A stretch of 64,000 bases of DNA from an uncultured bacterium (lineage in GTDB: Bacteria; Verrucomicrobiota; Kiritimatiellia; RFP12; UBA3636): contig CACWKU010000002.1 of NCBI GenBank assembly GCA_902761575.1, positions 5,578-69,577 of the forward strand, given 5' to 3'. The notes below the pieces were generated by a model that did not search any database, was not told the DNA's origin, and worked only from the letters and a program-made list of their open reading frames with translations. Shown piece by piece: positions 1,761-57,054 of the stretch (position 1 is its first letter; each line of letters starts with the position of its first letter). The position numbers were made by a program, and so were the translations under genes.

Positions 1761-1890
1761 GTCGGCGACTCCATTCACGGGGTGGTTGTCACGGGACCTA
1801 TCATACCGCACGGCGGCCGTCTTGGAACTTATACGAAAGTACCATCCGCGGACTATACGCGGAAGCGCGTCCGGGCTTCGGGCAGACCTG

Positions 1891-4350
1891 GAGTCAGTCG
1901 ATGGAGAACACCGCTCGCGGCCTGGCCGCAGGCTGTCCGCCACTCCCTTCGCCGCCTCCGGGGCCGAGGCCCTCGCCGTCGGACACGCTGCCGTATTCGT
2001 AGCAGCCCATCGAGGGCGGATCGACGAAGGCGCTGCCCGCGAGGTCGAGGGCGACGCCGGTCGCCGTGCCGGCGCCTTTCGCGGGGGAATCCTGAGCAAT
2101 CGTGAAAATGCCCGCCGCGGCGTTCCCGAACTTGGGCTCGCCCGTCGCGCTGTGATCGCCGAGCTTGTCGGCCGGGACGTCGAAGAGGCAGTAGTCCACG
2201 CCGCCCGCGTAGCTCATGTCCACCGTCTTCTCCGCGGTGCCGGAGGCGTTGCCTGCGACGATGCAGTCAACCAGCGACGCTTTCTTGCCCGTGTCGTTCG
2301 CCGAATGGACTCCGCCGCCCGTTCCGCTCGCCCGGTTGCCGACGATGGTGGTGTTGCGCACCGTGCGGGCGTAGTTCTTGTAGAAGAGGTCCAGACCGAT
2401 GCCGCCGCCATTGCCGAACGCCCGGTTCCCGCAGACGAGGCACGCGTCGACGACGGCCTCGCCGCGGACCGTCTGGTCGCGGCACCCGATTCCGCCCCCG
2501 GCGCAGTAGGTGGCGCCCTTCATGCCCACCTGGTTCTGCACGACGGCACAGCGCTCGACGGTGCCCTTGTCGAGGAAGATCCCGCCGCCGAAGCACGAGT
2601 TCCCGGTGGCGCCGGCGAGGTTCTTGAGGACGCGGCACTCGACGAGGGAGCCGTCCGACAGATAGACGCCGCCGCCGTGATTGTATCCGCCGGACGTGAC
2701 GCCGCCCGTCAGCGTGACGCCGCGGAGGGTCGAGCCGCCGTCGAGGGTCGCGACGCGCTTGGTCGCCCGCTGCCGGATGGCCGTCGTCCGCCAGCCACTG
2801 CCGGCGACGGTGACGCCGCCGGTGATCGCCAGTTCCGCGTCGACGAGGTAGGTCCCTCCGGCGAGCGTCACGGTTCCGCCGGCGGCCGCCGCGGCGTCGA
2901 TCGCCGCCTGCAGGGCCGCCGTGTCGTCGTCTCCGCTGGGCTCGAGCGCGCCGGTCCCGGAGGCGGCGGTAGTGAAGCTGCCCTGCCGCCGGGTGCCGAG
3001 GCGGCCCGTCGCATTGTTGACGACGGACGCCGTCCAGTGGTAGGTGGTTCCCGGGGTCAGGCCCTTGATCCAGGCGACGAAGCGGTTGCGCTGCCCGGCG
3101 AGGACGATCCGCTCCGGCCCGAGGCTGTCCGCGTCGGTGCCGCAGGCGAAGGCGATGTCGCACGCGCTCGCCCCGGCGCCCGGCGAGGCGATCATGCCGG
3201 AGAGCGTGACGACCGTGGACGCGGGCTGGACGAAGAACTCCTCGAGGACGGGCGCGGCGGGGGCCGGCGCCGCGTAGGCGGCGCACTCGCGCACTCCGCG
3301 CAGGAGCGCGGACTTGCAGGCGTCGTCGAAGGTGCCGTCGATCCGATCCGCCGCATGCAGGAGCTTGTCGTAGCCCGCGAAGGAGACCGGGACGGAGGCC
3401 GCGAGCGCGATGGAGGCGCCAGCCGCCTCGGACTCGTTCGCGGGGTTCGCCGCAAGCGAGTCGATGCCCTGGCGGAAGACCTGCTTCGCGAAGGCGTCGA
3501 CGGAGAGTCCGCGGGCGGCGGCCGCCGACTCGAACGCCGCGTATTCGGCGGCGGAGAGCTTCACGGCGGCGGAGGGCTCGTCCGAATAGGTCTCCTTGAC
3601 GATCAGCGTCTCGTCCGCGTTCCAAGCCGCTTCCGCGGCGGACATCTCCGCGGCGTCGAGTCCGAACGCGGCGAGGACGGCGCGCGCCATCTGCCGATCG
3701 CCCGTCGGCGCCATGTGGACGCCGTCGACGGTCGCGGCGCGCCCGCCCATGTTGTATCCGGCCTGTTCGCTCAGGCGCGGATTGTCGATGTCGTTGATCC
3801 AGCCGCGCACGGCGTGGAAGGTGTCGGCATACGGAACGCCCTCGGCGGCGGCGATCTCCCTGACGCCGGCCGCGTACCGGCGGATTTCGCCGTTTTCCGC
3901 CTCGCCGGCCGCCGTGGTCGGCGAAAGAAGGACGGGAACGGCGCCGGCGGCCTTGGTCTTGGCGACCATCTGGAGCTCGTTGGCGTAGAACTTTTCATAC
4001 GTCGAGTTCGCGTCCTGGTACCAGACGTCGTTGACGCCCGCGCTGATGGTGACGACGTCGGGATCGTGCGCGAGGACGTCGGCGTCGAACCGCGCGAGCA
4101 TCGCGGCCGACTTGTCGCCCTTCACGCCCGCGCCGTACCAGGTCACGTCGATGCCGTTCGCGGCGAGGCCCCGGACGACGAGATTGACGTATCCGTGGCG
4201 ATTGGTCACGCCGTACCAGGTGATCGAGTCGCCCATGAAGACGAGCGTGTCGCCGGTCTTGACGACCTTCTCGCCGGCGACGGCGGCGAAGGGGGCGGCG
4301 ATGGCGGCTGCGCAGGCGAGCGCGGCAAGGAGCGGAGTCCGGGGTCTCAT
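1891..4350 (-). CDS. Secreted SGNH/GDSL hydrolase fused to Fn3-like and right-handed beta-helix domains. C-terminal tail ..PRAVFSID
   Basis: ORF 1894..4410(-). Likely start at MRPRTPLLAALACAAAIAAPFAA (ATG revcomp 4348-4350) with RBS GAAAGAACCTCCC. GDSIT SGNH motif, GTTYHWTASVVNNATG Fn3-like, beta-helix repeats, PPSMGCYEYG, ends RAVFSID. Confidence 0.8.
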
Positions 4351-4443
4351 GGGAGGTTCTTTCGATGGTTGTGGCAAGACGGCGCCCAGTCTACGCCAAA
4401 CGCCGCCCAACGACCATCACCCGGAAGTATACGTCCCGGCGCG

Positions 4444-7416
4444 CTATTCCGGGGCGCCGGAGCGCAGGAGCATGAAGCCGCGGTCGGCGTTCACGGGGAC
4501 GGGGACGAGGATCCGCGTGCCGTCCGCGCTGACGCCGAGGTCGGCCTTCTTGAGCGAGACGGGGGCCCAGTCCGCGGCCTTGGCATTGAGGTCGGCGTTG
4601 GTGCAGACCGCGATGCCGAGGACCGCGGTGCCGCCCTCGATCGCGAGCGTCGCGATCCCGGGCGCCTCGAGCTCGGTGGTCGAGACGAGCGCCATTCCGT
4701 CGGGAACGGCGGAGGAGAAGCCGCCGCGCAGCTCGCCCAGAGACAGGCGCACCGGCACCGCGTCGGGGAGCGACGCGAAGGCGTTCGCGCCGGGGACCAC
4801 GCCGTCGCCGATCTCGATGGCGGAGACCGCCGCCGGATCCCACGGCGCGTCGGACGCGGCCGCGAAGTCGTCCATCGCCCCGGAGCCCGAGAGGGTCAGG
4901 ACGCCGTCCGCGTCGAGCGTGGCGACGACCGAGTCGCCGACCTGCCACGATTCCGACGCGGACGAAACCGCCTTGAACACCCAGGTGTTCGGCCCGTCGG
5001 ACTGGAGCGTCAGCTCGGAGGAGTCGTAGACCTCGCCGGTGTAGAGCTCGCGGACCCGCTCCATGCCGGCCGGCAGGCTGATCCGGATCGTCGCGTTCGA
5101 CGCCGTGTGGAACATGAGGACGTCGCCGTGGCGGCGGACGCAATGCCCGATCGGCGCGATCGGCGTGGCCCCCATCCCGACGAGGAGGTCACGCCACACC
5201 GTCGGGTTGGTGACGTGGTACGGCATGTTGTTGATATCGCGCACCGTCGCCTGCGACGACGGGAGGCTGAACGGGCAGTGGAAGAGCCAGACCGACTTGA
5301 AGTCGGAGGCGGAGACGCGCTGCTGCAGCGCGGTCCGCATCTCGCCTTCCGGCGCGAAGACGTTGAGGAAGACGGCCTTGCGGTAGCGGCCCGCGGGCTG
5401 GGCGAGGAAGTCGTCGAGCGACATGAAGTCGAACGGCACGCCCGACGCGTAGAGGCCCGGCAGGGAGTGCGTGTAGACGAGGGCGTGCGTGAACGTCTCG
5501 ACGTTCGAGCACCGCAGGCGCTCGCGCCAGTCGGCGACGACGGCGACCTCGTTGCCGGAGTCCTCCGGCCGCGCGCCGATCTGCCCGAGGACGCGCTGCG
5601 TGTCGGCGATGGCCTGCAGGACGGGCGGCGTGTCCATCGAGAACGGCCGCTTGTCGATGTCGTGCTCGGGGTCGAGCATCTGGAGGCCGCATCCGTCGAA
5701 GTAGCGGTTGAGCCAGTTGCGGCGCGTGGTCATCGCCGACTCCCGGTCGCTGCGGGTGCAGATGTACTGGAGCTGGACGTAGTCGGAGACATGGTGGTGC
5801 CGCATGTCGTCCTCGAGCATGACGAGCTTGCCGTGGCGGTGGAAGGTCGCCGGAATCGTGCGGTGGTAGTAGGCGCCGCCCGCGAGCCGGCACTCCTCCG
5901 TGTAGTCGGCGGGATTGGACATGAAGTCGACGTCCGGCGAGGAGAGGACCCGGTCGATCATCACGTTCGCCGCCTCCGGCTGGTGGGTCGTCATGACGTA
6001 GCCGTAGTACATGCCGACGAGGCGCCCGGGGAGCTCGGTCTTGACGGTGTGCGCGACGTTCGTCATGAGGTCGGCGATCACGGTGGCCTGGCACTCGTAG
6101 AAGTCGATCACCTTCTGCTCGGTCGCATTGCTCGCGCGGTTCAGGAAGAAGCGGTCGTTGTCGTTCCTGCGCTCCGACATCGTCGGCGGGTCCTGGCCCG
6201 CGTACTTCCCGTTCTTCCATTGGCGGAACGCCTCGGTCATCCGAAGCCCCGTGTCCGGGCCCTCGTCCATCCCGTACATGTGCCACTCGGTATAGATGCC
6301 CCAGCAGGGGCGAACCGCGATGACGCGGTTGCCCCACGACTGCGCCTTGATGTAGGCGGCGAGCTGCGTCAGGAGGCTCTGCACCTCGGCGCAATAGGCG
6401 GCCGAGGCCGGCGAGGGCCGCGCGACGCGGTCCGTGCGCTCGTCGCCGTCGCTGACGATGTCGCCCCTGGCGTAGCCGATCCGCTCCTCCGGATGCGCCG
6501 CAAGCCACTTCGGCAGCTCCATGCGGATCAGCACCAGGATGCGCGCGTCGGGCGCCGCCTGGAGCAGCGCGGCGGCCTTGTCGCCGAGAGCGGTGAACTG
6601 GTACGAGCCGGCCGCCTTCTCGTATTCGGAGGGCCGCAGGTTGAGCTGGTTGATCGTGATTCCGAGATTCGCCATCTTCGCGACCGCCTGCTTGCAGTAG
6701 TCGCTGTCGACGCCGCTCTGGTTGAACACGGGCTCGACCAGCGTCCCGTTGAGCGAGATCTTCGGCATGCCGTTGGTGTAGACGATCCGCGCGTCGGGCG
6801 TGTCCCCCGCCAGCCGTGCGGCCCGGGCCGCGCGCTCCTCCTCCGTCGTGCAGTTGTTCACGTAGGGCGTGATGTCCCCGGCGATGGGCGTCCACGCGTC
6901 GCCGATCTCCGTCGCCGCGCGCCAGGAGGAATCGTCGAAGCTCGGATCGTGCCAGTCGCCCGCCGCGATGCCGTCCGCGACCTTGAAGGTCTGCGCGTCG
7001 CTGTTGACGACGACGTGGCGGCCGTCCGTGAGCTCGATGTCCCCGCGGAGGATGATCCCCGCCTTGCTCACGTGGTTCGTCGCGAGCATCGCGAGGACGT
7101 TGCGCCCCTGCTGCAGGCCGTTGCCGTCCACGATCGCGTTGCGCGAGAAGGACGTGCCGTTCATCCAGTACAGGGCGCCGTCGTCGACGTACACCTTGAT
7201 GGACGCCCGACGAACCGGCCCCGGCACGTCGAATGCCGCGCGGAACGAATAGGTCTCGTGCGACTGCGCCTCTGCCGCGCCCCAGATCCAGCGCGAGGCG
7301 GAATCGTATTCCGCGCGGGCGGCGGACGCCGCGACGACGAGCAGCGCGGCGGCCGCGAATGCGAGTCCCTTCGGCGGGAGGAAGGGCGCGGAGAGAGGCA
7401 TGCGACGGAAGGTCAT
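4444..7416 (-). CDS. Secreted putative glycoside hydrolase with galactose-binding-like N-terminal domain (GH2/GH35/GH42-like; family uncertain)
   Basis: ORF 4444..7482(-); start MTFRRMPLSAPF.. preceded by GAAAGGACCACCC RBS. Signal peptide AALLVVAASAARA. Motifs IKVYVDDGALYWMNGTSF and FDDSSWRAATEIGDAWTP resemble sugar-binding jelly-roll domains of beta-galactosidase-type enzymes. Long TIM-barrel-like middle region. Confidence 0.45.
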   Translation of the reverse strand: MTFRRMPLSAPFLPPKGLAFAAAALLVVAASAARAEYDSASRWIWGAAEAQSHETYSFRAAFDVPGPVRRASIKVYVDDGALYWMNGTSFSRNAIVDGNGLQQGRNVLAMLATNHVSKAGIILRGDIELTDGRHVVVNSDAQTFKVADGIAAGDWHDPSFDDSSWRAATEIGDAWTPIAGDITPYVNNCTTEEERAARAARLAGDTPDARIVYTNGMPKISLNGTLVEPVFNQSGVDSDYCKQAVAKMANLGITINQLNLRPSEYEKAAGSYQFTALGDKAAALLQAAPDARILVLIRMELPKWLAAHPEERIGYARGDIVSDGDERTDRVARPSPASAAYCAEVQSLLTQLAAYIKAQSWGNRVIAVRPCWGIYTEWHMYGMDEGPDTGLRMTEAFRQWKNGKYAGQDPPTMSERRNDNDRFFLNRASNATEQKVIDFYECQATVIADLMTNVAHTVKTELPGRLVGMYYGYVMTTHQPEAANVMIDRVLSSPDVDFMSNPADYTEECRLAGGAYYHRTIPATFHRHGKLVMLEDDMRHHHVSDYVQLQYICTRSDRESAMTTRRNWLNRYFDGCGLQMLDPEHDIDKRPFSMDTPPVLQAIADTQRVLGQIGARPEDSGNEVAVVADWRERLRCSNVETFTHALVYTHSLPGLYASGVPFDFMSLDDFLAQPAGRYRKAVFLNVFAPEGEMRTALQQRVSASDFKSVWLFHCPFSLPSSQATVRDINNMPYHVTNPTVWRDLLVGMGATPIAPIGHCVRRHGDVLMFHTASNATIRISLPAGMERVRELYTGEVYDSSELTLQSDGPNTWVFKAVSSASESWQVGDSVVATLDADGVLTLSGSGAMDDFAAASDAPWDPAAVSAIEIGDGVVPGANAFASLPDAVPVRLSLGELRGGFSSAVPDGMALVSTTELEAPGIATLAIEGGTAVLGIAVCTNADLNAKAADWAPVSLKKADLGVSADGTRILVPVPVNADRGFMLLRSGAPE

Positions 7417-7514
7417 GGGTGGTCCTTTCATGTGTTGGGGAAAGACGCCGGCGAGTCTAGAGGAACCGCGGTCCACGGACAATCACCCGAAGGTATACGC
7501 CCGCCGCATGCACC

Positions 7515-10013
7515 CTAGTCGTCCCAGACGCTGCTCCACGCCACGCGCGACCATTCGGTCTCGCGGGCGGAGAAGAAGTTCGGCAGGCCGGGCGGGGTCA
7601 TGCGGAGGTAGGACCAGTCCGGCATGTCCGGGAAGACGTGGTACTTGGACGACTTCTTCTTCTTGTACTGGTAGTTGCCGCCGAAGTTGACGTAGGAGTC
7701 CAGGTTCTCGCCGTCGTAGTTGAAGCCGCCCTCGGCGGTCGAGGACATCCGCCAGCGGTACTCCGGCTCCTGCACGTCGTACAGGCAGAGGACCGTCCCG
7801 TTGAAGTGGAGCTTGACCTGCTTCCAGTCCTCGATCCACCGGAAGACGTTCTCGAACCCGCCCGAGTAGTTGTTGTCCTGGTGGAAGTCCTGCGACTCCT
7901 CCACGGGGATGGAGGGGATGATCCCGAGCATGCAGACGGCGTTGACCGTCGTCTCGCTGGCCCGCCCGCGGAAGTAGTGGATCCCGCCGGCCTTGTCGGT
8001 GAAGGACGCCTCGCCGGGGGCCTGCTCCTCCTCCTCCATGTGGGACTGGATGATGCGCGTGATACCCCCTCCGACGCGATCGGAGAGCTGCGCGCCGTCC
8101 GTCTGGTCGATCTCCAGCTTCGCGGCGGCGGCGTTCCAGACGTAGTCGCCGCTGACGCCGAGGCAGACCGAGAAGTTGGGGTCGTAGTGGTGCTGCTGCC
8201 AGAAGTTGGAGAGCGTGGTGACCGTGTCGCCGGCGAGCATCGCGCTGGGGACGTCCTCGGTGGAGGCCGCGTCCCGGGCTCCCTTCCCGTTCGTGTTGAA
8301 GTTGCCCTCGACGTAGAGGTGGCGGGCCGTGACGATGCTGACGTCGCTGCCCTGCAGGTCGGCTCCGTTCCGGATGCGGACGCAGGGGATGGGCCTGATC
8401 CGGCCCGTGCCCCCGTCGGCGCGGTCCGTGCCCGTCTCCGCGTCGTAGCGGCCGACCGGAACGAAGGCCGGCTCGTCCACGTCGACGTAGATGATCTTGT
8501 CCGGCCCCTCGTCCCCGCCGGGCGCCGCGTCGAGGATGCGCCGGAGCGGGGAGTTCCTCCGCAGGATCTCGTCCAGGTAGAGGTCGACGGGCTTCATCAC
8601 CCACTGGATGCGCCGGTCCACGAAGTAGTTGTCCGTCTGGATCGCCCCGCCGTTCTGGCCCTCCGAGCCACGGTTCGCGAGGTTGTAGGCGCCGGTCGTC
8701 ACCGTGTCCTTGTCGTAGACGGTGCAGACGTGCGCCGTGGTCCTCCTCTTGGACCGGGTCCAGTTGTCCTCGAAGTTCAGCCCCGGATTCACGACGTCGC
8801 CGTAGGACTGCGAGCTGACGTTCGTCGAGGCGATGGCCGGGACGGCCCTCTTGAGCAGGTGGGTGATGTCCTCGCCGCGGGCGCCGTCGGAGCCGACCCC
8901 GCGGTAGAGACTGTAGTTGCCGTCGGCGTCGACGTGCAGGTAGAGCGCCGCCTTCCGCGCCAGCTTCTGGCTTTCGGCCTCGGCGTTGTAGTCGGAGTCC
9001 CAGCGGGTCTTCGGCGGCTCGATCAGGTAGTGGTTGTCCTTCTCGGCGCCGATCGGCGGGGTGAGCTTGGTGACGCCGTTGTCGCCCGTCTGCACGGCGT
9101 TGCCGTAGTAGAGGGACGACTGGGCGACCCATTCCGCGTCGCCGAGGCTGGAGTCGACGTAGCGGGTCCCGTCCCAGATCTTCTTCGCCTTCTTCTGCCG
9201 GTCCTTCTCCTCCGTCCCGAGCTCGGCGTCGTCCCCGAAGCGGACCGTCGCCATGCGGTAGGCCCCGCGCGACTGGCCGTTGAGCACGACGTCGTAGTTC
9301 ATGGACCAGTCCCCGGTCGACTTGTCCACGTTGATCGAGAGGCCCCCGTCGTTGAAGTCGTCGAGCCCGGTGTTCTTGCGCTGGTGGAGGAAGCGCCCGA
9401 CGCAGGTGAGGTTCCGGTTGAAGTTGGCGATCTTCGTGACGTACATGGAGCCGTTGGAGTGGACCTTCCCGGTGAACGTCTGGCCCGGGTTGCCGGGGTT
9501 GGCCTCGAAGTCCCCCTCGTAGAACGCGCCGTACTCCCCCAGGGAGGTCCCCTGCGCGAGGATTGTCTGCTTGAGCGCGCAGGACACGCCGGAGAGGCGG
9601 TTGCGCGCGCCGGCGTAGACGGTCACGTACTGCGACGCGGAGCTGACGGTGCTGGCGGGGCCGCCGGAGTCGGTGCCGTCGCCCAGGACGACCTTCACGC
9701 GGAGCTCGTACTCGCCCGCGTCGACCGGCGTCGCGGGGGCGGCGATCGTGGCGTACTTCTCCCGGATCCCGGCGATCTTCTCGTTGTTGATGATGGCCTG
9801 GACCCGCTTGACGCCGTAGGCGAGCCCCGACTCCGCCACGACGAACGCGCGCTGCACGTCGAGGGTCCGGCGCGCGAGGCGCATCGAGCGGACGGAGAAC
9901 CGCGTGACCAGCGCCACGACGAGGCAGGTCGTGAACACCAGCACGAGGACCGCGGGGAGGACCACGCCCGCGCTGCGGAGCGATCGGGTTCCGGGATGGC
10001 GGCGGGCGGTCAT
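7515..10013 (-). CDS. Large membrane-anchored hypothetical protein (N-terminal TM helix), last gene of pseudopilin-like cluster. Possible giant minor pseudopilin or secretion-associated protein
   Basis: ORF 7515..10298(-). Likely start MTARRHPGTRSLRSAGVVLPAVLVLVFTTCLVVALV (ATG revcomp 10011-10013), directly abutting the stop of the upstream pilin-like gene (TAG 10017-10019). No recognisable catalytic motif. Confidence 0.5.
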   Translation of the reverse strand: MTARRHPGTRSLRSAGVVLPAVLVLVFTTCLVVALVTRFSVRSMRLARRTLDVQRAFVVAESGLAYGVKRVQAIINNEKIAGIREKYATIAAPATPVDAGEYELRVKVVLGDGTDSGGPASTVSSASQYVTVYAGARNRLSGVSCALKQTILAQGTSLGEYGAFYEGDFEANPGNPGQTFTGKVHSNGSMYVTKIANFNRNLTCVGRFLHQRKNTGLDDFNDGGLSINVDKSTGDWSMNYDVVLNGQSRGAYRMATVRFGDDAELGTEEKDRQKKAKKIWDGTRYVDSSLGDAEWVAQSSLYYGNAVQTGDNGVTKLTPPIGAEKDNHYLIEPPKTRWDSDYNAEAESQKLARKAALYLHVDADGNYSLYRGVGSDGARGEDITHLLKRAVPAIASTNVSSQSYGDVVNPGLNFEDNWTRSKRRTTAHVCTVYDKDTVTTGAYNLANRGSEGQNGGAIQTDNYFVDRRIQWVMKPVDLYLDEILRRNSPLRRILDAAPGGDEGPDKIIYVDVDEPAFVPVGRYDAETGTDRADGGTGRIRPIPCVRIRNGADLQGSDVSIVTARHLYVEGNFNTNGKGARDAASTEDVPSAMLAGDTVTTLSNFWQQHHYDPNFSVCLGVSGDYVWNAAAAKLEIDQTDGAQLSDRVGGGITRIIQSHMEEEEQAPGEASFTDKAGGIHYFRGRASETTVNAVCMLGIIPSIPVEESQDFHQDNNYSGGFENVFRWIEDWKQVKLHFNGTVLCLYDVQEPEYRWRMSSTAEGGFNYDGENLDSYVNFGGNYQYKKKKSSKYHVFPDMPDWSYLRMTPPGLPNFFSARETEWSRVAWSSVWDD

Positions 10014-10015
10014 GG

Positions 10016-10621
10016 CTAGAGCTTCCTCTTGAGGTTGCGGCAGGCGCCGATGACGACGACGTCCATGCCCTGGCGCCCGGGGCCGGTCGTGTCGCGCTCG
10101 GCCGATCCGATCGCCGGATCGCCGACGTGGGCGGCGAGGGCGACGGAAACGCCCGTCACGAGGCGGAACATCGGGATGCCGCTGTCCGCCGGCCCGACCC
10201 ATTCGCAGAGCGTGCGGGCCGGATCGTTCCCCTTTCCGTTCCTGCGATGGACGATCCTCGACTCGCGGACGGTCGGGCCCTCCTCGTAGCCGATCCATTC
10301 GGCGGTGTCCTCCTCGTCGCCGCTCGCCGCGGCCTCGAGCGCGGATTCGTCCGAGTAGAGGCGGACGCCGCGGTTGTCCGCGTCGACGAGCAGGCAGAAG
10401 TTGGCCTCGACGAGGTCGACGAAGGCGGCCTGCAGGACGCGGGCCTGGTTGTTGAACTCGACCTGCGAGCGGAGCGCGCGGCCCGCGTTCGAGAGGAAGA
10501 GGTAGAGCGAAAGGACGGCCGCGACGATGATCGAGCCCGCCGCAGACGCGATCAGCACCTCGGCGAGCGTGAAGCCGGCGCGCCGGCGCGTCGCGGCGCG
10601 GAGGGAGGCCGTCGGTTCCAT
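10016..10621 (-). CDS. Prepilin-type N-terminal cleavage/methylation domain protein (pseudopilin-like)
   Basis: N-terminus MEPTASLRAATRRRAGFTLAEVLIASAAGSIIVAAVLSLYLF matches the type IV pilin / T2SS pseudopilin N-methylation motif G-F-T-L-x-E followed by a hydrophobic helix. Confidence 0.8.
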   Translation of the reverse strand: MEPTASLRAATRRRAGFTLAEVLIASAAGSIIVAAVLSLYLFLSNAGRALRSQVEFNNQARVLQAAFVDLVEANFCLLVDADNRGVRLYSDESALEAAASGDEEDTAEWIGYEEGPTVRESRIVHRRNGKGNDPARTLCEWVGPADSGIPMFRLVTGVSVALAAHVGDPAIGSAERDTTGPGRQGMDVVVIGACRNLKRKL

Positions 10622-10634
10622 TTCCGCCCCCTCC

Positions 10635-11414
10635 TCACATGTACGAGAACGAGACGGCCTCGCTGTACAGCGAGATCCTGTAGTCCGTGCCGTTCGTCTC
10701 GGGGTTCGTCGTCCGGGCGAAGTTCACCATGATCGGCGTCCCGGGGTCGCGGGCGATGTAGGAGACGATCTTGTCGTTGGACACGTGCTTGTGCTCCTCG
10801 CCGAGCGAGATCTCCTGCGCCTGCTTCCCGCCCGGCTTCATGACGATCGTCACCGCCTCGAAGGAGGCGGGCATGCTCGCGAGCGTGGACTGCGTGTAGA
10901 CGGAGCCGTCCGTCGCGAGGGCGTAGAACATGACGGGGCGCTCGAAGTTGGGGTTGAGCTCCAGGTCCCCGGTGCTCAGGCTGCCCGACTCCGCGTAGGT
11001 CGAGTACTGGTTCGCGATCAGCCCGTGCAGCTCCTCGGAGCGCGTCCGGCCCCGGAACGTCCAGGTGCACTTGATGTCGACCATCGCGAACTCGGCGCCG
11101 TCCTCGACGACGTTGGTGATGGCCGTCCGGACCGTCCCCATGACGAGCCCCCGGGACGGATCCTTCGACATTGAGGCCAGCACGACCTGCCGGGCCGGAT
11201 AGAACTCCTCGGAGATGTTCTCGAAGGCGACGGCCTTGAGCTCCTCGTACCGGTTCAGGCACGCGCCCTGCGCGGCGATGCGCTGGGCCGTCGCCCGGGA
11301 GCTCTGCTCCACGACGGCGATCCCGCGGAAGGCGCAGGCGGACAGCAGCGCCACGAGCGCGCCGGCGACGGCGACCTCGATGAGGGTGAAGCCAGACGTA
11401 TTCTTCGCTTTCAT
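10635..11414 (-). CDS. Prepilin-type N-terminal cleavage/methylation domain protein (pseudopilin-like)
   Basis: Start MKAKNTSGFTLIEVAVAGALVALLSACAF (ATG revcomp 11412-11414, RBS GAGGAACCGA). Classic GFTLIEV prepilin motif. The ORF-track start at 11507 is probably an upstream alternative-codon artefact. Confidence 0.8.
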   Translation of the reverse strand: MKAKNTSGFTLIEVAVAGALVALLSACAFRGIAVVEQSSRATAQRIAAQGACLNRYEELKAVAFENISEEFYPARQVVLASMSKDPSRGLVMGTVRTAITNVVEDGAEFAMVDIKCTWTFRGRTRSEELHGLIANQYSTYAESGSLSTGDLELNPNFERPVMFYALATDGSVYTQSTLASMPASFEAVTIVMKPGGKQAQEISLGEEHKHVSNDKIVSYIARDPGTPIMVNFARTTNPETNGTDYRISLYSEAVSFSYM

Positions 11415-11458
11415 TCGGTTCCTCGATTTCGGTGGTGGATTCTCTGCGCGAGCCCCTC

Positions 11459-11475
11459 GTTCCGCCCCGCGGAAC
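11459..11475. promoter_or_regulatory. 7-3-7 palindrome GTTCCGC-CCC-GCGGAAC in the 5' region of the pseudopilin operon, ~45-60 nt upstream of ATG 11414. A TATAAT -10-like hexamer lies further upstream in gene orientation
   Basis: Perfect inverted repeat. In gene orientation the upstream region reads ..cgTATAATtgccgcgg.. about 50 nt further 5'. Confidence 0.35.
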
Positions 11476-11613
11476 CGGTTGGGTTCGACGAGGCGGAATT
11501 CTTGCACGCCGCGAAGCGCCGCGGCAATTATACGAACGGTTCGCGAACGCTTCCGGAGGATGATACGAAAGTATCAGAGCGCCGGTCGCCGACACCCTGG
11601 CCCCAGGATGCCG

Positions 11614-17033: not shown

Positions 17034-19208
17034 TCAATCGACGAGAAACGCGACGCGGGGGCGCCTGGCGCCGCCCGTGACGTCGGTCGCGGGCCCGGCG
17101 GAGAGGAACGACGCCGAGGCCTGGTCGTACTCGGCCTTCACCCAGTCGGCGGAAGAGACCGCGTCCCGGAGGCGGAACTCGTCGAAGAGCCCGATGAAGT
17201 GCCCCTGCCAGCAGTCCTTGTCGTAGGCGCCGAAGACGAGCTTGTCGTTGGTGTCCTGCACCGCGGCGATCGTCTGCTCGAAGACCTTCGCGCCGTTGGC
17301 GTACGCCGTCAGCGTCGTTCCGTCGAACACGCCGGCGACGTGCACCCACGCGTCCTGCGCGCCCGGAATCGCGCCCGAGACCGCGGTCTTCGAGCCGGAA
17401 TAGCCGTTCAGCGTGTCGTACCCCGTGATCGCGAGCTGCCAGTCCGGCGTGTCGTAGACCGCCGCCACGTAGCGGTTGCGGCTCGCGATGCGCGCGATGC
17501 CGTCGCCCGGGGTCGCGCCGGTCATCTTGACCCAGCCGGAGAAGGTGAAGTCATCGCCGAGGTCGAGGATCGTCGAATCGCCGACCTCCAGCATCGACTG
17601 TCCGGTATATGCATTGAGGCCCGGCACCCCGTTGATCCGCGCGTTGCCGAAGACGCCCTCCGCCGCGGCCTGCCGGGAGGCGGAGTTGCCCTTCGGAACG
17701 GCGGTCATCCCGTTCGCGGAATCCGCGACCGCGCCGCCGTCCTCGGCCATGTGCCAGACGCCGACGTAGTCCGCCTTCCAGGTCCAGCGCGGCTCGACCG
17801 CGTCCGCGGGCGCGCCGCCGTAGTACATCGTGAACGTCGTCCCCTGCGAAAGCGCGGGGAGCTTGACCCAGACGAGCGAGGCTCCGTTCGGGTCCCACTG
17901 CTCGACCTCGTACGAGAGCGAGCGCCCGGCGGCGTCGGCGAAGCGGAGCTCGCCGCCGCTCGACGGGTCGGCCATGTCGGCGTAGCGGAAGCCCGAGGGC
18001 GAATCGGCGGCGAGCCGCACCGCGACCGGGAAGTCGGCGAGCGCCGACGACCCCGCGTAACCCGAGACCGTGAAGACGACCTGCTTGGCGAACGCGGACC
18101 TGTCGACGGTCCGGACCGGCTCCTTCGGCAGATCGGCCTCCGACGCGGCGGGAAGCTCGTGCACCGCGGCGAGCACGGCGGCATCGAGGACGCCCGGCAG
18201 GCTGCCGAGCTCGGAACGGATGTCCGTCTCGTTCGCACGGAGCGCGCGGCCGCAGTCGAGCGCCGCGTCGTAGGTGGGGAACCCGATGCGCGCCGACAGG
18301 GAGAACTCCACGTCCGCCCCGTCCGTCTCGGACACCTCCGCAGGCTGCTGCGACAACCGCTCGATGCCGCGGAAGAACAGGTCCCGGTGGAAGTCGGCCA
18401 GGGACCTTCCGGCCCGGGCCGCGGCCGCCTTCACGGCCCGGTACTCGGCGGCGGTGATCCGCACGCTCGGGCGGGCCTGGTAGAACGGCTCGATCTCGTT
18501 CCACGCCGCCGCCGCCTTCGCCAGCTCCTCGGCCGAGTCGAAGCCGAGCGCCTTCAGCATCTCGATCGCGATGATGCGGTTCCCGACGACGTCCATGTGC
18601 AGGCTGTCGACGGTGGCGCGGATGGGGAACCCCTTGTCCGTCTTCCCGATGACGGGATTCACGGGATCCTCCACGTACGCCCGGAACGCCTCGTGGGTCG
18701 TTCCGTACGGGACGTTCCGCGCCTGCGCGATGGCCTTGACCGCCGCCGCGTAGTCGAGGATGCTCTGCGGGAAGGACTCGAGCGAGCTGCCCGTCGGGGA
18801 GCACAGCACCGGCGTGATCCCCGCCGCGATCGCCATGTCCGCCATCGCGGCGACGTCGTCCGGCGAGCTGGCCGCGTTGTTCGGCCACCCCTGCGCGCAG
18901 TCGTTCACGCCGGCGAGGATCGTGACGACATCCGGGTTCTTGGCGATGACGTCGTTCTGGAAGCGGGCCCGCATCTGCGCGGCGGTGTTGCCCGCGATGC
19001 CGACGCCGTGCCAGGTCACGCGGACGCCGTTCGTCGCGAGGCCGCGCGCGACGAGCGGCAGGTAGCCGGCGGCGCTGTCCTTGCCGTACTGCGTGATCGA
19101 GTCGCCCATGAAGACGAGCGTGTCGCCGTCGTGGATCGCCTTCTCGCCGCCGCTCGCGGAGAGCGCGGCGAAAGCCAGGGGGAGCAGGAATGCGCGTGTC
19201 GTTCTCAT
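17034..19208 (-). CDS. Secreted SGNH hydrolase, DUF2341, LamG protein. C-terminal tail ..RPRVAFLVD
   Basis: ORF 17034..19208(-). MRTTRAFLLPLAFAALSASG signal, VFMGDSITQYG, DUF2341 and LamG blocks homologous to the 12327 and 24275 genes. Confidence 0.85.
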   Translation of the reverse strand: MRTTRAFLLPLAFAALSASGGEKAIHDGDTLVFMGDSITQYGKDSAAGYLPLVARGLATNGVRVTWHGVGIAGNTAAQMRARFQNDVIAKNPDVVTILAGVNDCAQGWPNNAASSPDDVAAMADMAIAAGITPVLCSPTGSSLESFPQSILDYAAAVKAIAQARNVPYGTTHEAFRAYVEDPVNPVIGKTDKGFPIRATVDSLHMDVVGNRIIAIEMLKALGFDSAEELAKAAAAWNEIEPFYQARPSVRITAAEYRAVKAAAARAGRSLADFHRDLFFRGIERLSQQPAEVSETDGADVEFSLSARIGFPTYDAALDCGRALRANETDIRSELGSLPGVLDAAVLAAVHELPAASEADLPKEPVRTVDRSAFAKQVVFTVSGYAGSSALADFPVAVRLAADSPSGFRYADMADPSSGGELRFADAAGRSLSYEVEQWDPNGASLVWVKLPALSQGTTFTMYYGGAPADAVEPRWTWKADYVGVWHMAEDGGAVADSANGMTAVPKGNSASRQAAAEGVFGNARINGVPGLNAYTGQSMLEVGDSTILDLGDDFTFSGWVKMTGATPGDGIARIASRNRYVAAVYDTPDWQLAITGYDTLNGYSGSKTAVSGAIPGAQDAWVHVAGVFDGTTLTAYANGAKVFEQTIAAVQDTNDKLVFGAYDKDCWQGHFIGLFDEFRLRDAVSSADWVKAEYDQASASFLSAGPATDVTGGARRPRVAFLVD

Positions 19209-19230: not shown

Positions 19231-21000
19231 TCAGTCGATGCAGAACACCACGCGGGGCCGCGGCGCGGTGATCGTCAGCGTCCGACGAAGGACGTAGATC
19301 GTGTTCTGGTGGTCCACCTCCACCCGGGCCTCGTAGGTCCCGGCCTGCACCGGCGGGCCGGAGAGCTTCGTCGAGCCCCGGTAGTACTCGAGCATGCCGA
19401 GCGACGAGGACGTGAGCGCGGCGAAGTCGGTCCCGACGAGCGTCGCCGCGAGCGGCGTTCCGTCGTAGGCCTTGGTCGTCTCGCCGCCGATGGAGAACGT
19501 CGGCGTGCCGGCCGTGCAGTTCGCGTTCGTGCAGGTCGCGGTCAGCGTGTCGCCGGACGCCGTCAGTTTCCAGCCGTGCTCGTGCGGATCCTCCGACTGC
19601 GACTGCAGCTTGAAGCTGTCGGTCCGGAACGCGCCCGCCGCGTTGCCCTCGGCGTCGAAGAAGTTCACCGGATCCGTGTTCGCGAAGCCGTACCGGACGG
19701 CGAGCGGCTCGGGGAAGGTCGGGCAGGAGACGGCGAGCGTGTCCGCGTCGACGATGCGGACCGTCCCGTCGAAGAACTTGGTCGTCCCGTAGTAGTCCCC
19801 GCCGACCTGGAACCCCCGCAGCGCCTGGCCGTCGCCGCTCGTGATCGCCGTGTGCGTGTCGAAATGGACGAGGATCTCGCTCGCGTTGCCGGGGTTCACC
19901 TCCGAGCGGAGATAGACCGGGCCCTCCGGGTAGAGGCCCGGCTCGCCGTAGACGTACTTGCGCGCGAATTCGCTCAGGCGCCTGCCGAGCTCCGGCTTCT
20001 TCGGCGGGTGGATGTCCGTGAGGTCGCCGATGTCGAGCGTCGGGACAACGTGGACGCCCTGCTCCTGCCGGCCCACCCAGTTCTGCGAGTCGCGCACGTC
20101 GCACCACTGCCCGTAGGCGCCGTAGAACGGAAGCTGCGCGACGAGGAACGGCATGTCCGCGTCGTTCCAGAGCGCGCGCCAGTTCCGGACCAGGGCCTGC
20201 AGCTTGAAGCGGTAGTTGTAGCCGAACCCGAACATGCCGTCCGACTCGCCCTGGTACCAGAGCACGCCCTTGACCGGAAGCGGCGGGATGGGCTCGAGGT
20301 TGTTCAGGATCATCTTCGAGTAATGGTCCTTCGCGCTCGTGCAGTCGGGAAGCCACTCGTCGATCAGCGAGCCGTCGACCGCCGCCGTGACGATGCCGAC
20401 GGGGACGCCCAGCTTCCCCTGCAGCTCCTTGGCGAAGAAGAATCCCATCGCCGAGCACTTCCCCGCCGTCGCGGACGACGCGACCTGCCAGGCGTTCTGG
20501 TTGAGCTGCCACTCGAAGTGGTTCTCGGTCGCCTCGATGAAGCGGATCGTCGGATAGTCGGCGTCCTGGAGCCACGCGGCCGCGTCGGCGAAGCGCTCGA
20601 TCGGATAGTAGGCGTTGGACTGCCCGCTCGCGAGCCACACCTCGCCGACCAGGATGTTCGTGGCCGTGAGCGTCGTCGTGCCGTCCGTCGCCGTGAGCGT
20701 GTACGGGCCGCCCGCCTCCATCGCGGGGAACTCGACGCGCCAGCGGGCCTCGCCGTCCGAGGCGTAGGGGCTTTCGAGATCCGCGGTCGCCGAAAGCGTC
20801 CGCCCGGCGAACGTGACCGTGACGGTCCTGCCCTGGATCGCGGCGCCGGAGATCGGCAGCGTGACGCCGCGCTGGAGCACGGCGTTGCTGTCGTAGTACT
20901 GGTTGACGCGGAACTTGGGGATCGTGTAGGCGGCCTGCGCGGCCGGCGCCAGTCCCGCGGCGATTGCGGCGATTGCGGCGAAGCGTTCGATGGCGTTCAT
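19231..21000 (-). CDS. Sialate O-acetylesterase-like carbohydrate esterase (SASA family) with C-terminal Ig-like region. Tail ..PRPRVVFCID
   Basis: ORF 19231..21009(-); ATG start MNAIERFAAIAAIAAGLAPAAQA (signal). The ORF-track first codon is TTG. GEVWLASGQSNAY and VLWYQGESD motifs are typical of sialic-acid 9-O-acetylesterases. Confidence 0.7.
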   Translation of the reverse strand: MNAIERFAAIAAIAAGLAPAAQAAYTIPKFRVNQYYDSNAVLQRGVTLPISGAAIQGRTVTVTFAGRTLSATADLESPYASDGEARWRVEFPAMEAGGPYTLTATDGTTTLTATNILVGEVWLASGQSNAYYPIERFADAAAWLQDADYPTIRFIEATENHFEWQLNQNAWQVASSATAGKCSAMGFFFAKELQGKLGVPVGIVTAAVDGSLIDEWLPDCTSAKDHYSKMILNNLEPIPPLPVKGVLWYQGESDGMFGFGYNYRFKLQALVRNWRALWNDADMPFLVAQLPFYGAYGQWCDVRDSQNWVGRQEQGVHVVPTLDIGDLTDIHPPKKPELGRRLSEFARKYVYGEPGLYPEGPVYLRSEVNPGNASEILVHFDTHTAITSGDGQALRGFQVGGDYYGTTKFFDGTVRIVDADTLAVSCPTFPEPLAVRYGFANTDPVNFFDAEGNAAGAFRTDSFKLQSQSEDPHEHGWKLTASGDTLTATCTNANCTAGTPTFSIGGETTKAYDGTPLAATLVGTDFAALTSSSLGMLEYYRGSTKLSGPPVQAGTYEARVEVDHQNTIYVLRRTLTITAPRPRVVFCID

Positions 21001-21148: not shown

Positions 21149-22345
21149 ATGAAGAAAGTCCTCGTCGTCTCCTCGATCAACGGCATCGCCGGCCGCAACG
21201 GCCTCACCGGCATCTTCGACTTCGTCAACGAGGGCCACGACTGGAGCATCCGCTTCCTGCAGAATCCCGGCGATTCCGCCGACGGGATGCTGCCCGCGGC
21301 GCTCCGGGGCGGCGTGGACGGCGTTATCGTGAGCCCCCGCGCGATGACGCCGGGGATCCGCCGGCTGCTGGACCGGCCGGTCCCGGTCGTGATGGTCCAC
21401 AACCCGGGCGGCGGCGTCCCGCGGCACGGCCCCCGCTTCTCCCTCCTGAAGAACGACGACCGATCCGTGGGCCGGCTCGCCGCCGAATACCTGCTCTCGA
21501 AGTCCCGGTTCCGCTCCTACGCCTTCATTCCGACGCCCTCGCCGACGACCTGGTCGGACGAGCGGCTCGCCGGATTCGCCGAGGCCCTGTCCGCGAAGGG
21601 CATGGCGCCCGTCGTGTGGAGCGCCGAGCGGCAGCCGCTCGGGGACTTCCTCAAGTCGCTGCGCAAGCCCGCCGCCGTCCTGGGGGCGACGGACCTCGAA
21701 GCCATCGACGCGCTCGCCGCGTGCCGCCGGCTGCGCATCGACGTCCCCTCGCGCGTCGCCGTGATGGGCGTCGACAACGACGAGATGATGTGCGAGGCGA
21801 CGAAGCCGACGCTCTCGAGCGTCCGGACGGACGACGTCGCGCTCGGCCGCCGCGCCGCGGAGGAGCTGGCCTTCCTGATGTCGGCGAAGGGCCCCCTCCC
21901 GCCGCGCGAGGCGATCCTCGTCCCGCCCGCCGGGGTCTCGGAACGGAACTCGACGCGCACCGTCCCCCCGGCGGGGTATCTCATCCAGGAGGCGCTCTCG
22001 TTCGTCCGGCGCCACGTGAACGAGGGCATCGGCGTCGACGACGTCGTGCGGCACCTGCACGTCTCGCACTCGCTCGTCCGCGCCCGGTTCCGCGAGGTCT
22101 ACGGCAAGTCCCTCCGCGACGTGATCCTGGACCTGCGGATCCGGACGGCGGCGTCGATGCTGCTCCGGACGAAGGCGTCCGTCCACGCGATCGCGCGGAA
22201 AACCGGATTCGCCTCCGACGCCCATTTCGTCCGCCTCTTCCGGAAGAAGACGGGCTCGACCCCGTCCGACTACCGCGCCGCGGGACGCCGGTCCTCGCGC
22301 CGCCCCGCCGCGAGGGCCGGCTCCGGGAACCGCACGGAAGCGTAG
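21149..22345 (+). CDS. AraC/XylS-family transcriptional regulator with N-terminal periplasmic-binding-protein-like sugar-binding domain (XylR-like)
   Basis: N-terminal LacI/PBP-like region (VVMVHNPGG.., GATDLEAIDALAACRRLRIDVPSRVAVMGVDNDE) plus C-terminal AraC HTH (..LSFVRRHVNEGIGVDDVVRHLHVSHSLVRARFREVYGKSLRDVILDLRIRTAASMLL.. GFASDAHFVRLFRKKTGSTPSDYR). Confidence 0.85.
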   Translation: MKKVLVVSSINGIAGRNGLTGIFDFVNEGHDWSIRFLQNPGDSADGMLPAALRGGVDGVIVSPRAMTPGIRRLLDRPVPVVMVHNPGGGVPRHGPRFSLLKNDDRSVGRLAAEYLLSKSRFRSYAFIPTPSPTTWSDERLAGFAEALSAKGMAPVVWSAERQPLGDFLKSLRKPAAVLGATDLEAIDALAACRRLRIDVPSRVAVMGVDNDEMMCEATKPTLSSVRTDDVALGRRAAEELAFLMSAKGPLPPREAILVPPAGVSERNSTRTVPPAGYLIQEALSFVRRHVNEGIGVDDVVRHLHVSHSLVRARFREVYGKSLRDVILDLRIRTAASMLLRTKASVHAIARKTGFASDAHFVRLFRKKTGSTPSDYRAAGRRSSRRPAARAGSGNRTEA

Positions 22346-22421: not shown

Positions 22422-23222
22422 ATGAAGACCAACGAGCTGTCCGTCTTCCACCACCACGTCCTCGAGTTCGCCAAGGCGCGCGGAATCCCGCTCGCGGAGG
22501 CCCTCGCCGCGACGCGGGCCATGGGGTTCGACGGACTCGTGACCGAACGGGCGCTCCTCTCGGACGGCGACGCCCTGAAGCGCCTCCTCGGCGCGAACGG
22601 CCTGCGCATCGTTTCGGTCTACGACTGGATCGACTTCGTCCACGACGACCCCGCGGCCTGCGCGCGCCGGACCGAGGAGCTCCTGCGGACCGCAAAGGAG
22701 TTCGGCGCTGCCAACGTCCTCGTCCTTCCTGGATGCTTCCGCGAGGGCGACGACGAGGCCGCCGGACTCGACCGGATCTGCGGCGGCCTCTCGGACGCCT
22801 GCCGCCTGGCGACGTCCCTCGGGATCGACGTCACGATCGAGGACTTCGGCCTTCCCGGCTCGCCCAACGGCACCATCGCCGGCTGCGCGGCGATCCTCGA
22901 GCGCGTGCCGGGGCTCGGCTTCGCCTTCGACACGGGCAACTTCGCCTGCTACGGCGAGGACCCGCACGACGCCTGGCCACTCCTCCGCGACCGCGTCGTC
23001 TTCGTCCACCTGAAGGACCGCGCGTCCGGGCCGCACGGACTCGACGTCTCCGCCGAGGTGCCGGTCGGCGACGGCGCCCTCGACCTCGGCCGCCTCGTCC
23101 GCCGCATGCGCGCCGACGGCTACGCCGGCGGCTTCGTCGCGGAGCACTTCGGCCATCCCGACCAGGAGGCGGCCATGCGCCGCTCGGCGGACTTCTTCCG
23201 CGGGATTGTCAGTCGATGCTGA
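22422..23222 (+). CDS. Sugar phosphate isomerase/epimerase (xylose-isomerase-like TIM barrel)
   Basis: 266 aa; ..AANVLVLPG.., FAFDTGNF, VVFVHLKD.. are motifs typical of AP-endonuclease-2/xylose-isomerase-like TIM barrel proteins. Confidence 0.7.
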   Translation: MKTNELSVFHHHVLEFAKARGIPLAEALAATRAMGFDGLVTERALLSDGDALKRLLGANGLRIVSVYDWIDFVHDDPAACARRTEELLRTAKEFGAANVLVLPGCFREGDDEAAGLDRICGGLSDACRLATSLGIDVTIEDFGLPGSPNGTIAGCAAILERVPGLGFAFDTGNFACYGEDPHDAWPLLRDRVVFVHLKDRASGPHGLDVSAEVPVGDGALDLGRLVRRMRADGYAGGFVAEHFGHPDQEAAMRRSADFFRGIVSRC

Positions 23223-31727: not shown

Positions 31728-31876
31728 GGTCGAGTCCTTTCCTTGGGTTGTCGAACGACGCCGACCAGTCTAGAAAATCCGCCCTCCCCGGACAATCACT
31801 CCGAAGTATACCCTCCGATGTATACGAAGGTATAACGCCCGGGTCTGCGCCCCTCGCTCGCACCGCGGCGCGCGGG

Positions 31877-33726: not shown

Positions 33727-33825
33727 CGTCCTAAAAAGGTGTGCCAGCACGTCGCCGAGTCTACCACGCGGGCCGACGGCCGAACAACGGTACGAAAGGA
33801 CACCGGGCCGGCTCCTACTGGACGC

Positions 33826-38231: not shown

Positions 38232-38429
38232 TGGCGTTTTTCTCCTGGTGCGTCGCCGTCGGGCGCATTCCCTCGGCGACGGCGACCATACTAGCACGCG
38301 CCGTCTTCCGTCCGAAACTACACAACCGTGTAGCACCCGTTTTCCGGCCCGCGAAGCGCCCCCGGAAGCGAGGCTCCGCCGCCCCTCGCGGCATCCGTGC
38401 GCGTGGCGGGGTGAGACACTCCTCCACGA

Positions 38430-49900: not shown

Positions 49901-49925
49901 ACGGAGAGCGGACCGCACCCGCGAC

Positions 49926-49949
49926 GCGCTCGCCTTTCGGCGAGTGCGC
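49926..49949. terminator. GC-rich hairpin between the convergent DUF499 gene (+) and the 49979-50284 gene (-). Candidate bidirectional terminator
   Basis: gcgctcgcc-tttc-ggcgag(t)gcgc imperfect stem-loop, 26 nt after the DUF499 stop. No clear U-tract. Confidence 0.35.
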
Positions 49950-49978
49950 CGCAGACGCGAGGAATGGAAACCGATCCG

Positions 49979-57047: not shown

Positions 57048-57054
57048 CGTCCGC

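Follow-up and report, generated by a model that had tools for sequence, protein, structure and literature searches.

The window analysed here, 64,000 nucleotides of contig CACWKU010000002.1 (positions 5,578 to 69,577; GenBank assembly GCA_902761575.1) from an uncultured bacterium of the Kiritimatiellia, has a G+C content of 68% and, as judged by Pfam, contains a dense cluster of genes for secreted glycan-active proteins. The genes lie mostly on the minus strand, and their products carry GDSL/SGNH esterase, Laminin_G_3, DUF2341, pectate-lyase-like beta-helix, SASA, NAGLU and NAGPA domains. Identical or near-identical DNA occurs in cattle-rumen assemblies (L012; related sequences are cited by such numbers throughout), homologues carry the name Kiritimatiellae bacterium, and close relatives include the rumen metagenome-assembled genome RUG13889 (L001, L004). 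Three repeated non-coding elements precede genes of the cluster, namely A (4431-4351), B (7497-7417) and C (31810-31728). We suggest that these elements are probably activator-dependent sigma70-type promoter modules of a glycan regulon and not structured RNA leaders.

All three elements lie on the minus strand and are collinear, and the conserved blocks which an earlier sequence-only reading of this DNA had reported are indeed present. The pairwise identities are 72% for A and B, 68% for A and C and 76% for B and C. The sequence TATACYTYSGRGTGATKGTC has three exact matches in the window (4412-4431, 7478-7497 and 31791-31810; chance expectation 0.03) and a fourth copy with three mismatches at 59808-59827, TAGACTSGNCGNCGTC is exact in A, B and C with one mismatch in a further element, D, and GTATAC occurs only four times in the 64 kb, every time within A, B or C. 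A profile search with nhmmer returned three strong copies (E 1e-21 to 1e-24) and D as a marginal one (E~1). The diverged copy that had been proposed at 1761-1890, here element E, was not detected by nhmmer, but its architecture is kept; D and E are diverged members which both retain the order of a box, 1 nt, a -35 hexamer, 17–18 nt and a -10 hexamer. The family is also larger than first listed, as it includes the promoters at 38332, 57003-57016 (bidirectional), 59814 and 11575, together with a member F just outside the window (L012 18195). When a genome collection, in which the source genome is not included, was searched with a strict 19-base pattern, only the A, B and C orthologues of close relatives and chance coding matches in low-GC genomes were found.

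The elements had been described as lying upstream of paralogous genes, which has to be corrected: by blastp no similarity could be detected between gene B and either gene A or gene C, and the three best copies precede non-homologous mature N-termini, i.e. a GDSL esterase, a protein without an above-threshold domain match and a pectate-lyase-like fold. Genes A and C differ in their first mature domain (GDSL versus pectate-lyase-like), and the similarity between A and C continues for about 55 nt within the part that codes for the signal peptide.

In B and C the hexamer TTGTCC lies exactly 17 nt upstream of an invariant TAGACT, and TGGTCG is found at that place in A. The spacer is 17–18 nt long in all members (17 nt in the window copies A, B and C, 18 nt in the L009 orthologue of C). 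Across A, B and C, 10/14 positions of the upstream box, 4/6 of the -35, 6/17 of the spacer and 6/6 of the -10 are identical. Most -35 hexamers of the family are weak (TTGTCC, TGGTCG, TTTCGG and others), and the -10 hexamers follow the pattern TAnnnT. The same core (TTGnCn, 16–18 nt, TAGnnT) is seen at other promoters of the window, with TTGACT/TAGGAT for the gene of an AraC hybrid regulator, TTGACC/TAGTCT for the 21009 gene, TTGCAA/TAGAAT for the 22422 gene and TTGCCA/TAGAAC for a second sensor kinase, HK2. In lower-GC relatives TACAAT, TAAAAT or TATAAT replaces TAGACT at equal distance; the gene B orthologues of L019 (80% protein identity) and L020 (75%) keep the layout with TACAAT and TAAAAT, respectively, at the TAGACT position.

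The assignment of the hexamers is further guided by the sensor kinase genes, whose ATG follows the hexamer by only 6–9 nt in the window and in L022, L024, L025 and L028; the hexamer is therefore taken as the -10. In detail, the first kinase gene of the window, HK1, starts with TAGAAT-cgtccgc-ATG at 57055, a gap of 7 nt. On this sequence evidence TAGACT is read as the -10 and TTGTCC as the -35, which would place the TATAC block at about -50 to -46. The sequence-only reading had interpreted TATAC(T/C) as the -10; it is better regarded as one half of a palindrome of the transcription-factor type at about -50 to -37, the -10 being the TAGACT block and the -35 being TTGTCC inside the second conserved block.

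The short distance from the -10 to the ATG was observed at 57042-57057 in the window, 9990-10003 in L022, 686-699 in L024, 4840-4853 in L025 and 15170-15221 in L028, likewise at the NAGLU gene of L028, and TGGTATAAT-N6-7-ATG stands also at unrelated genes in L019 and L020. Such spacing implies that the kinase genes of these Kiritimatiellae may be transcribed into leaderless mRNAs. The starts given by the longest open reading frames are wrong for at least four genes of the window (38817 versus 38232, 56737 versus 57055, 11507 versus 11414 and 10298 versus 10013), and were moved 90–590 nt downstream because of the promoter architecture and of gene calls in public assemblies.

Downstream of the -10 the elements continue with a G+C-rich discriminator and start region (..CGNCGTC), followed by an unstructured 5' untranslated region of about 30 nt with the Shine-Dalgarno sequence GAAAGGA. 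An extracytoplasmic function sigma promoter of the GGAAC..CGTC type, which the conserved CGTC had suggested, was rejected on inspection of the sequence, as there is no conserved -35 partner at 16–17 nt.

TATAC is the left half of a 14-bp dyad, TAYAC-N4-GTRTA, that every member has upstream of the -35, separated from it by 1 nt. In A, B and C the left half of the box is perfect whereas the right one, GGGTG or GAGTG, is degenerate; the boxes of D, E and F are degenerate at other positions. Perfect 14-bp palindromes in the same register are found in the window (TATACCTTCGTATA, TACACGGTTGTGTA, TACACAACCGTGTA and GATACTTTCGTATC) as well as in relatives (TATACACCGGTATA and TATACTCGCGTATA in L019, TATACTTTCGTATC in L020). 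These 5-4-5 palindromes superseded an initial reading of the box as AraC-type direct repeats (TATAC-N6-GTGAT, two boxes of one monomer). A reading of the A+T-richer box as an UP-element is likewise disfavoured, as the box has dyad symmetry, is confined to the regulon and does not occur at other promoters.

The architecture is shared by about 10 promoters of the window and, in contigs of related rumen Kiritimatiellae, by about 26. In its full form (box, 1 nt, 6 nt, 17–18 nt, TAnnnT) it was found nine times in the window, compared with 0.94 expected from Markov simulations (100 runs, maximum 4), and 7/9 of these matches lie directly upstream of gene starts. Over 15 sources, 36/39 matches sit 6–72 nt upstream of the start of a long open reading frame. 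Intergenic DNA makes up 7.6% of the window but has half (10/20) of the boxes scoring at least 8/10 (p = 6e-7). The perfect palindromes, three in this count, are all in promoter regions, the chance expectation being 0.25 for at most one mismatch.

Module A (4351-4431, minus strand) precedes a GDSL/pectate-lyase-like gene (1894-4350, ATG at 4350; orthologue in L004). It consists of the box TATACTTCCGGGTG (4431-4418), an A at 4417, the -35 TGGTCG (4416-4411), a 17-nt spacer and the -10 TAGACT (4393-4388), with a leader of about 30 nt and the Shine-Dalgarno sequence GAAAGAA at 4363-4357. Module B (7417-7497, minus strand; orthologues in L010 and L011) precedes the gene of a 990-residue protein (4444-7416, ATG at 7416) with the box TATACCTTCGGGTG (7497-7484), an A at 7483, the -35 TTGTCC (7482-7477), a 17-nt spacer, the -10 TAGACT (7459-7454) and GAAAGGA as Shine-Dalgarno sequence. 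Module C (31728-31834, minus strand), upstream of the gene of a 1745-residue protein (26490-31727, ATG at 31727; orthologues in L001, L003/L006, L009 and L028), has two boxes, the distal perfect palindrome TATACCTTCGTATA (31834-31821) and the proximal TATACTTCGGAGTG (31810-31797), followed by the -35 TTGTCC (31795-31790), 17 nt, the -10 TAGACT (31772-31767) and a Shine-Dalgarno sequence.

The diverged module D (33723-33802, minus strand) lies upstream of the NAGLU gene, with the box TGTCCTTTCGTACC (33802-33789), a G, the -35 TTGTTC (33787-33782), 18 nt and TGG-TAGACT, the -10 being at 33763-33758; the orthologous promoter in L028 has the perfect box TACACCTTCGTGTA. The NAGLU (alpha-N-acetylglucosaminidase) gene itself (31877-33722, minus strand) shows at 33480-33500 a 64-nt deletion relative to its RUG13889 orthologue (L001), which puts the N-terminal domain and the TIM barrel in different reading frames and reflects either a pseudogene or an assembly error. 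Module E (1761-1843, minus strand), also diverged, serves the gene ending at 1760 and comprises the box GGTACTTTCGTATA (1843-1830), an A, the -35 GTTCCA, 17 nt and the -10 TATGAT (1805-1800); its orthologue in L016 has the box GATACTTTCGTATA. The suggestion that the elements act as internal promoters where they follow the stop codon of an upstream gene (A, B, C and D) is plausible, and terminator-like sites were not found there.

Module G (38233-38332, minus strand) precedes a BD-FAE/pectate-lyase-like gene with its true ATG at 38232 (orthologue at L022 6866). It carries the perfect box TACACGGTTGTGTA (38332-38319), a G, the -35 TTTCGG, 18 nt and the -10 TAGTAT (38293-38288), followed by GGTCGCCGTC as in A and C. 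The control region at 56928-57054 is bidirectional. Around its perfect palindrome TACACAACCGTGTA (57003-57016) a minus-strand promoter (-35 TTTCCG, 18 nt, -10 TAGGAT at 56977-56972) serves the beta-helix gene 54009-56927 and a plus-strand promoter (-35 TGGCCC, 18 nt, -10 TAGAAT at 57042-57047) serves HK1; L022, L024 and L025 have the same arrangement with a perfect box. The HK2 promoter (59808-59866, plus strand) has the half-degenerate box CACCCGTCCGTATA (59814-59827), a G, the -35 TTGCCA (59829-59834), 17 nt and the -10 TAGAAC (59852-59857). On the minus strand, positions 59827-59808 form an extra partial copy of an A/B-type box (TATACGGACGGGTGATGGTC), and an intact divergent arrangement with the perfect box TATACCGGCGTATA is present in L028, suggesting that the inverted copy is a relic of a divergent C-type promoter.

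The promoter at 11415-11575 (minus strand) belongs to a pseudopilin-like operon (genes 10635-11414, 10016-10621 and 7515-10013). It has the palindrome GATACTTTCGTATC (11575-11562) and a -10 TATAAT (11532-11527) at an atypical spacing of 22 nt past the -35 position. Its leader of about 105 nt (11415-11526, minus strand) contains a 16-bp hairpin (UUCCGCCUCGUCGAACC...GGUUCCGCGGGGCGGAA), and the long hairpin leader is kept in relatives (L004 5388-5533, L016 9830-10000 and L011 7560-7710), where it may precede gene B instead. No Rfam match was obtained for this leader, and its overall fold has z = -0.56. The two small genes in the minus-strand region 10016-11414 encode a prepilin-type N-terminal cleavage/methylation motif (GFTLIE; weak N_methyl match) and stand ahead of the gene of an 832-residue protein, so that pseudopilin-like proteins sit inside the glycan cluster.

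Some further observations concern the cluster as a whole. A common C-terminal tail, [PS]-R-[AV]-[VA]-F-x-[IV]-D-stop, occurs in five otherwise different secreted proteins (...RPRAVFSID, ...RPRVVFCID, ...PPRVVFSID, ...RSRAVFSID and ...RPRVAFLVD; gene 3' ends at 1894-1920, 17034-17060, 19231-19260, 23209-23235 and 24275-24300, minus strand). It looks like a sorting or anchoring signal, although not a PEP-CTERM-like one. The cluster is interrupted at 39599-53876 by a defence- or restriction-like island with genes for a Z1-domain protein, a DUF4420 (PD-(D/E)XK) protein, a DUF1156 methyltransferase, a DUF4417 protein, an IrrE-like M78 peptidase and a HATPase_c_4/wHTH protein.

Downstream of the bidirectional region a kinase-regulator-kinase trio occupies 57055-62002 on the plus strand. 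HK1 (57055-59154) is a sensor histidine kinase with HisKA_3 and HATPase_c domains and a large periplasmic domain. It is followed by a response regulator of the NarL/FixJ family (59180-59800) with a helix-turn-helix of the LuxR/GerE type, a candidate binder of the TAYAC-N4-GTRTA boxes, and by HK2 (59867-62002), which is 53% identical to the kinase of a TATAC-type system (L019) and 39–41% identical to HK1. HK2 has no regulator of its own adjacent to it, either in the window or in L028. The large periplasmic domain of the kinases gave no match to a known family. The regulator contains the Pfam domains Response_reg and GerE, its closest solved relatives are VraR, DevR and NarL, and it reaches no NCBIfam equivalog cut-off (128.8 bits for the NarL equivalog, where 250 are needed). 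As a side note, L006 keeps only the last approximately 45 nt of the response-regulator gene, beside a NUDIX gene.

At seven two-component loci the promoter carries a perfect box, whose variant tracks the recognition helix of the regulator. The divergent promoter region of the kinase-regulator operon contains a perfect CTACAC-N4-GTGTAG in the window and in L022, L024 and L025, whose kinases are 77%, 65% and 46% identical; the regulators of this group are 74–82% identical and have the recognition helix SENTVRKATSTIF in common. TATAC-N4-GTATA is found in the own promoters of the HK2-like kinase systems of L019, L028 and L031, with the helices SEITIKKTLQ and SEITVKKHLS in the regulators beside the L019 and L031 kinases. 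In the distant paralogues L026 and L034, which have other helices, the box is absent. A two-component system that controls its own expression along with a regulon would classically show this pattern.

Starting from the architecture, its recurrence and conservation and its association with two-component operons, all of which are observed directly, we infer an activation step and the identity of the binding protein as follows. A phosphorylated dimer of a response regulator of the NarL/LuxR family would bind the box and recruit RNA polymerase, and the weak -35 hexamers fit such a dependence on an activator. The candidates for the binder are the regulator at 59180-59800, together with HK1 and HK2, and/or a paralogue which prefers TATAC. 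In this way the regulon of secreted glycan-degrading enzymes would be switched on gene by gene, along with the kinase-regulator operon itself. If transcription is assumed to start 7 nt after the -10, the box would be centred at -43.5 with a 17-nt spacer or at -44.5 with an 18-nt spacer. The claim of the sequence-only reading that selection acts on a cis element, comprising a shared promoter and a regulator-binding site which co-regulates the glycan-enzyme genes, is supported to this extent.

Several points weigh against this model. The start site, and hence the position at -43.5, is assumed. A generic promoter scan of the elements (threshold 9/12) called nothing, because TTGTCC/TAGACT agrees with the E. 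coli consensus at only 8/12 positions. The regulator of the window belongs to the TACAC group, yet A, B, C and E carry TATAC half-sites, and there is no gene for a regulator of the TATAC group in the window. Hybrid boxes exist as well (L016 20768 and L022 6866). Box position 3 thus may or may not discriminate between regulators, and either one regulator fed by both kinases would read TAYAC, or a TATAC-type paralogue would be encoded elsewhere in the genome. In addition, A, B and C all depart from the palindrome in the right half of the box (G[G/A]GTGA), which could reflect a different or additional specificity. Neither the conservation of ..CGNCGTC nor the 6/17 conserved spacer positions are explained by an activator; possible causes are common ancestry, a preferred start site or a second operator. 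Finally, the cluster contains, at 21149-22345, a gene for another regulator, a hybrid of the AraC and periplasmic-binding types.

This hybrid regulator is central to the alternative that fares best, in which the elements are promoters with a dyad operator and the binder is the AraC hybrid or an unlinked dimeric regulator, possibly a repressor. The gene of the hybrid is present in the cluster and also in L016, L022 and L024, and the divergent promoter region of this gene itself contains half-sites resembling TTTCG(A)TAC. However, the segment 11592-23210 with this gene is missing from L004 and L011, where elements A and B are intact, and the perfect boxes at the two-component loci and the correspondence between box variant and recognition helix also speak against this alternative. 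The 5-4-5 palindrome suits a symmetric dimer, whereas AraC proteins typically use tandem asymmetric sites. The weakness of the -35 hexamers, and a site that directly adjoins the -35, speak for activation. We consider this alternative unlikely.

Comparison of strains is informative about the origin of the copies. Between strains at 92–98% identity (L004, L011 and L006), whole gene cassettes have been inserted, deleted or transposed, with breakpoints at stop codons or promoter modules (4442/4443, 7372, 11447-11591, 23211 and 38760-38937 in the window). In L004 and L016 gene B is driven by a promoter of the 11575 type with a long leader and not by element B, in L003 and L006 element C is placed near HK2, and in L028 gene C and HK2 diverge from one region with two boxes. 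The similarity between the elements could accordingly be mainly a historical residue, the 5' ends of cassettes having been duplicated or exchanged by recombination in a mosaic cluster without selection on every block. This is in line with the three-way identity of the spacer (35%, against 7% expected from composition), the extension of the A–C similarity by about 55 nt into signal-peptide codons, the restriction of strict copies to A, B and C orthologues in close relatives, the cassette-sized rearrangements, and the different regulon promoter of gene B in L004 and L016; the reuse of promoters is a documented concept (PMC3575422). Against it, conservation is block-wise and not uniform: the box, the -35 and the -10 persist in orthologues which are 75–80% identical at the protein level and differ in G+C, where the remaining region has been replaced, and the identity of the element exceeds that of third codon positions (89% versus 70% in L009, 94% versus 84% in L003).

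As a full account of the similarity this historical reading is improbable. It is, on the other hand, compatible with promoter modules under activator control, since it covers the origin of the copies and not their function, and for the similarity of A, B and C both ancestry and constraint apply. The 35% spacer identity and the extension of the A–C similarity into signal-peptide codons show A, B, C and F to be homologous cassettes, duplicated or reused, which is why they align beyond the functional boxes. The modules can be called reused because gene B is unrelated to A and C and stands under a different regulon promoter in some strains.

The sequence-only reading had also proposed a structured 5' untranslated RNA or a site of RNA processing. 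A leader acting as cis-regulatory RNA (riboswitch, attenuator, RNA-processing site or anti-Shine-Dalgarno hairpin) and transcribed from a promoter at TATAC or further upstream can draw on the pyrimidine tract GTCTTTCC in B, which could pair with the Shine-Dalgarno sequence GAAAGGAC, and on a small invariant AGAC..GTCT inverted repeat across the -10 and the start region. The putative pairing is, however, kept neither in A and C nor in orthologues, a conserved -35 is lacking ahead of TATAC, and only 12–23 nt separate it from the stop codon of the gene before. Fold energies are no better than those of shuffled sequences (the short leaders have z of +0.2 to +0.7, the full elements -1.07, +1.58 and +1.16), nine sequences of the A, B and C types gave three invariant and no covarying pairs at -1.68 kcal/mol with RNAalifold, and Rfam yielded no match on any element at either the gathering or the E<=1 threshold. 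A structured RNA leader was thus rejected on single-sequence folds, RNAalifold and Rfam, and we regard an RNA leader of any of these kinds as very improbable.

Scarcely credible, finally, is a mobile or recombination element (a miniature inverted-repeat transposable element, an invertible phase-variable promoter or a shufflon site), to which the rearrangement breakpoints at cassette borders near the elements and the one inverted partial copy at 59808-59827 might point, but which was discarded because inverted repeats are absent within 600 nt of A, B and C, terminal repeats, target duplications and an adjoining recombinase gene are lacking, orientation and distance to the start codon are fixed across all copies, and the inverted copy is explained by a divergent promoter region, intact in L028, of which it would be the other half.

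Promoter modules controlled by an activator have well-studied counterparts. A NarL dimer bound just upstream of a weak -35 activates transcription at yeaR, with a site at -43.5, and at ogt, with sites at -44.5 and -77.5 (PMC10853779). The modules resemble these E. coli promoters in that a palindrome lies directly upstream of a weak -35, with its centre near -43.5 or -44.5 (given the assumed start), in that a dimeric LuxR/GerE-type response regulator is the candidate binder, and in that some promoters have a second upstream site; they would accordingly fall into the class of non-canonical class II activation by a NarL/FixJ-family response regulator. In contrast to the NarL regulon, the sites are of the 5-4-5 form (TAYAC-N4-GTRTA) and not 7-2-7 heptamers (TACYYMT-NN-AKRRGTA), and the signal is presumably a glycan instead of nitrate.

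The modules also recall putative mobile promoters, whose definition requires that stretches of at least 50 nt ahead of non-paralogous genes be at least 80% identical (Matus-Garcia, Nijveen and van Passel 2012; PMC3575422). As in those, homologous upstream regions precede non-homologous coding sequences within one genome (B compared with A and C), and gene B is found under different promoters of the family in different strains (the window compared with L004 and L016). Unlike them, the copies A, B and C are only 68–76% identical, which is below the 80% criterion, they are confined to one regulon or cluster, and no mobility mechanism is evident.

Polysaccharide-utilisation loci have dedicated sensors, for example the hybrid two-component systems of Bacteroidetes and SusR. 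The locus resembles them in that a membrane sensor kinase system adjoins, in divergent orientation, genes of secreted glycan-degrading enzymes, which it apparently controls together with its own expression. It differs from the Bacteroidetes hybrids, in which one polypeptide has an AraC output, by a classical HisKA_3 kinase and a separate NarL-type regulator, and from the Bacteroidetes systems in general by the Kiritimatiellae host, the lack of SusC/SusD genes and a promoter copy per gene instead of one operon promoter. A literature search found no description of a promoter or operator for rumen Kiritimatiellae.

The element is thus real and functional-looking, but of an ordinary kind with nothing mechanistically unexpected. 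Its value lies in a concrete regulatory model, with a box, its position, candidate kinase and regulator genes and targets, for the glycan clusters of rumen Kiritimatiellae, an uncultured group. The box can be used for predicting regulon members in metagenome-assembled genomes, the -35/-10 consensus (TTGnCn, 17–18 nt, TAGnnT) and the putative leaderless kinase mRNAs help to correct gene starts, and the cluster provides a natural example of promoter modules reused before unrelated genes. More tentatively, and with clear doubts, one may imagine a code of NarL-type regulators in which one base per half-site separates TACAC-N4-GTGTA from TATAC-N4-GTATA, with HK1 and the orphan HK2, encoded contiguously with the regulator between them, converging on one regulator, and with cassettes of box, core promoter, leader and sometimes signal peptide being recombined between unrelated enzyme genes. 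If this were true, the code and the swapping of cassettes would allow strains to rewire which glycan enzymes answer to which sensor.

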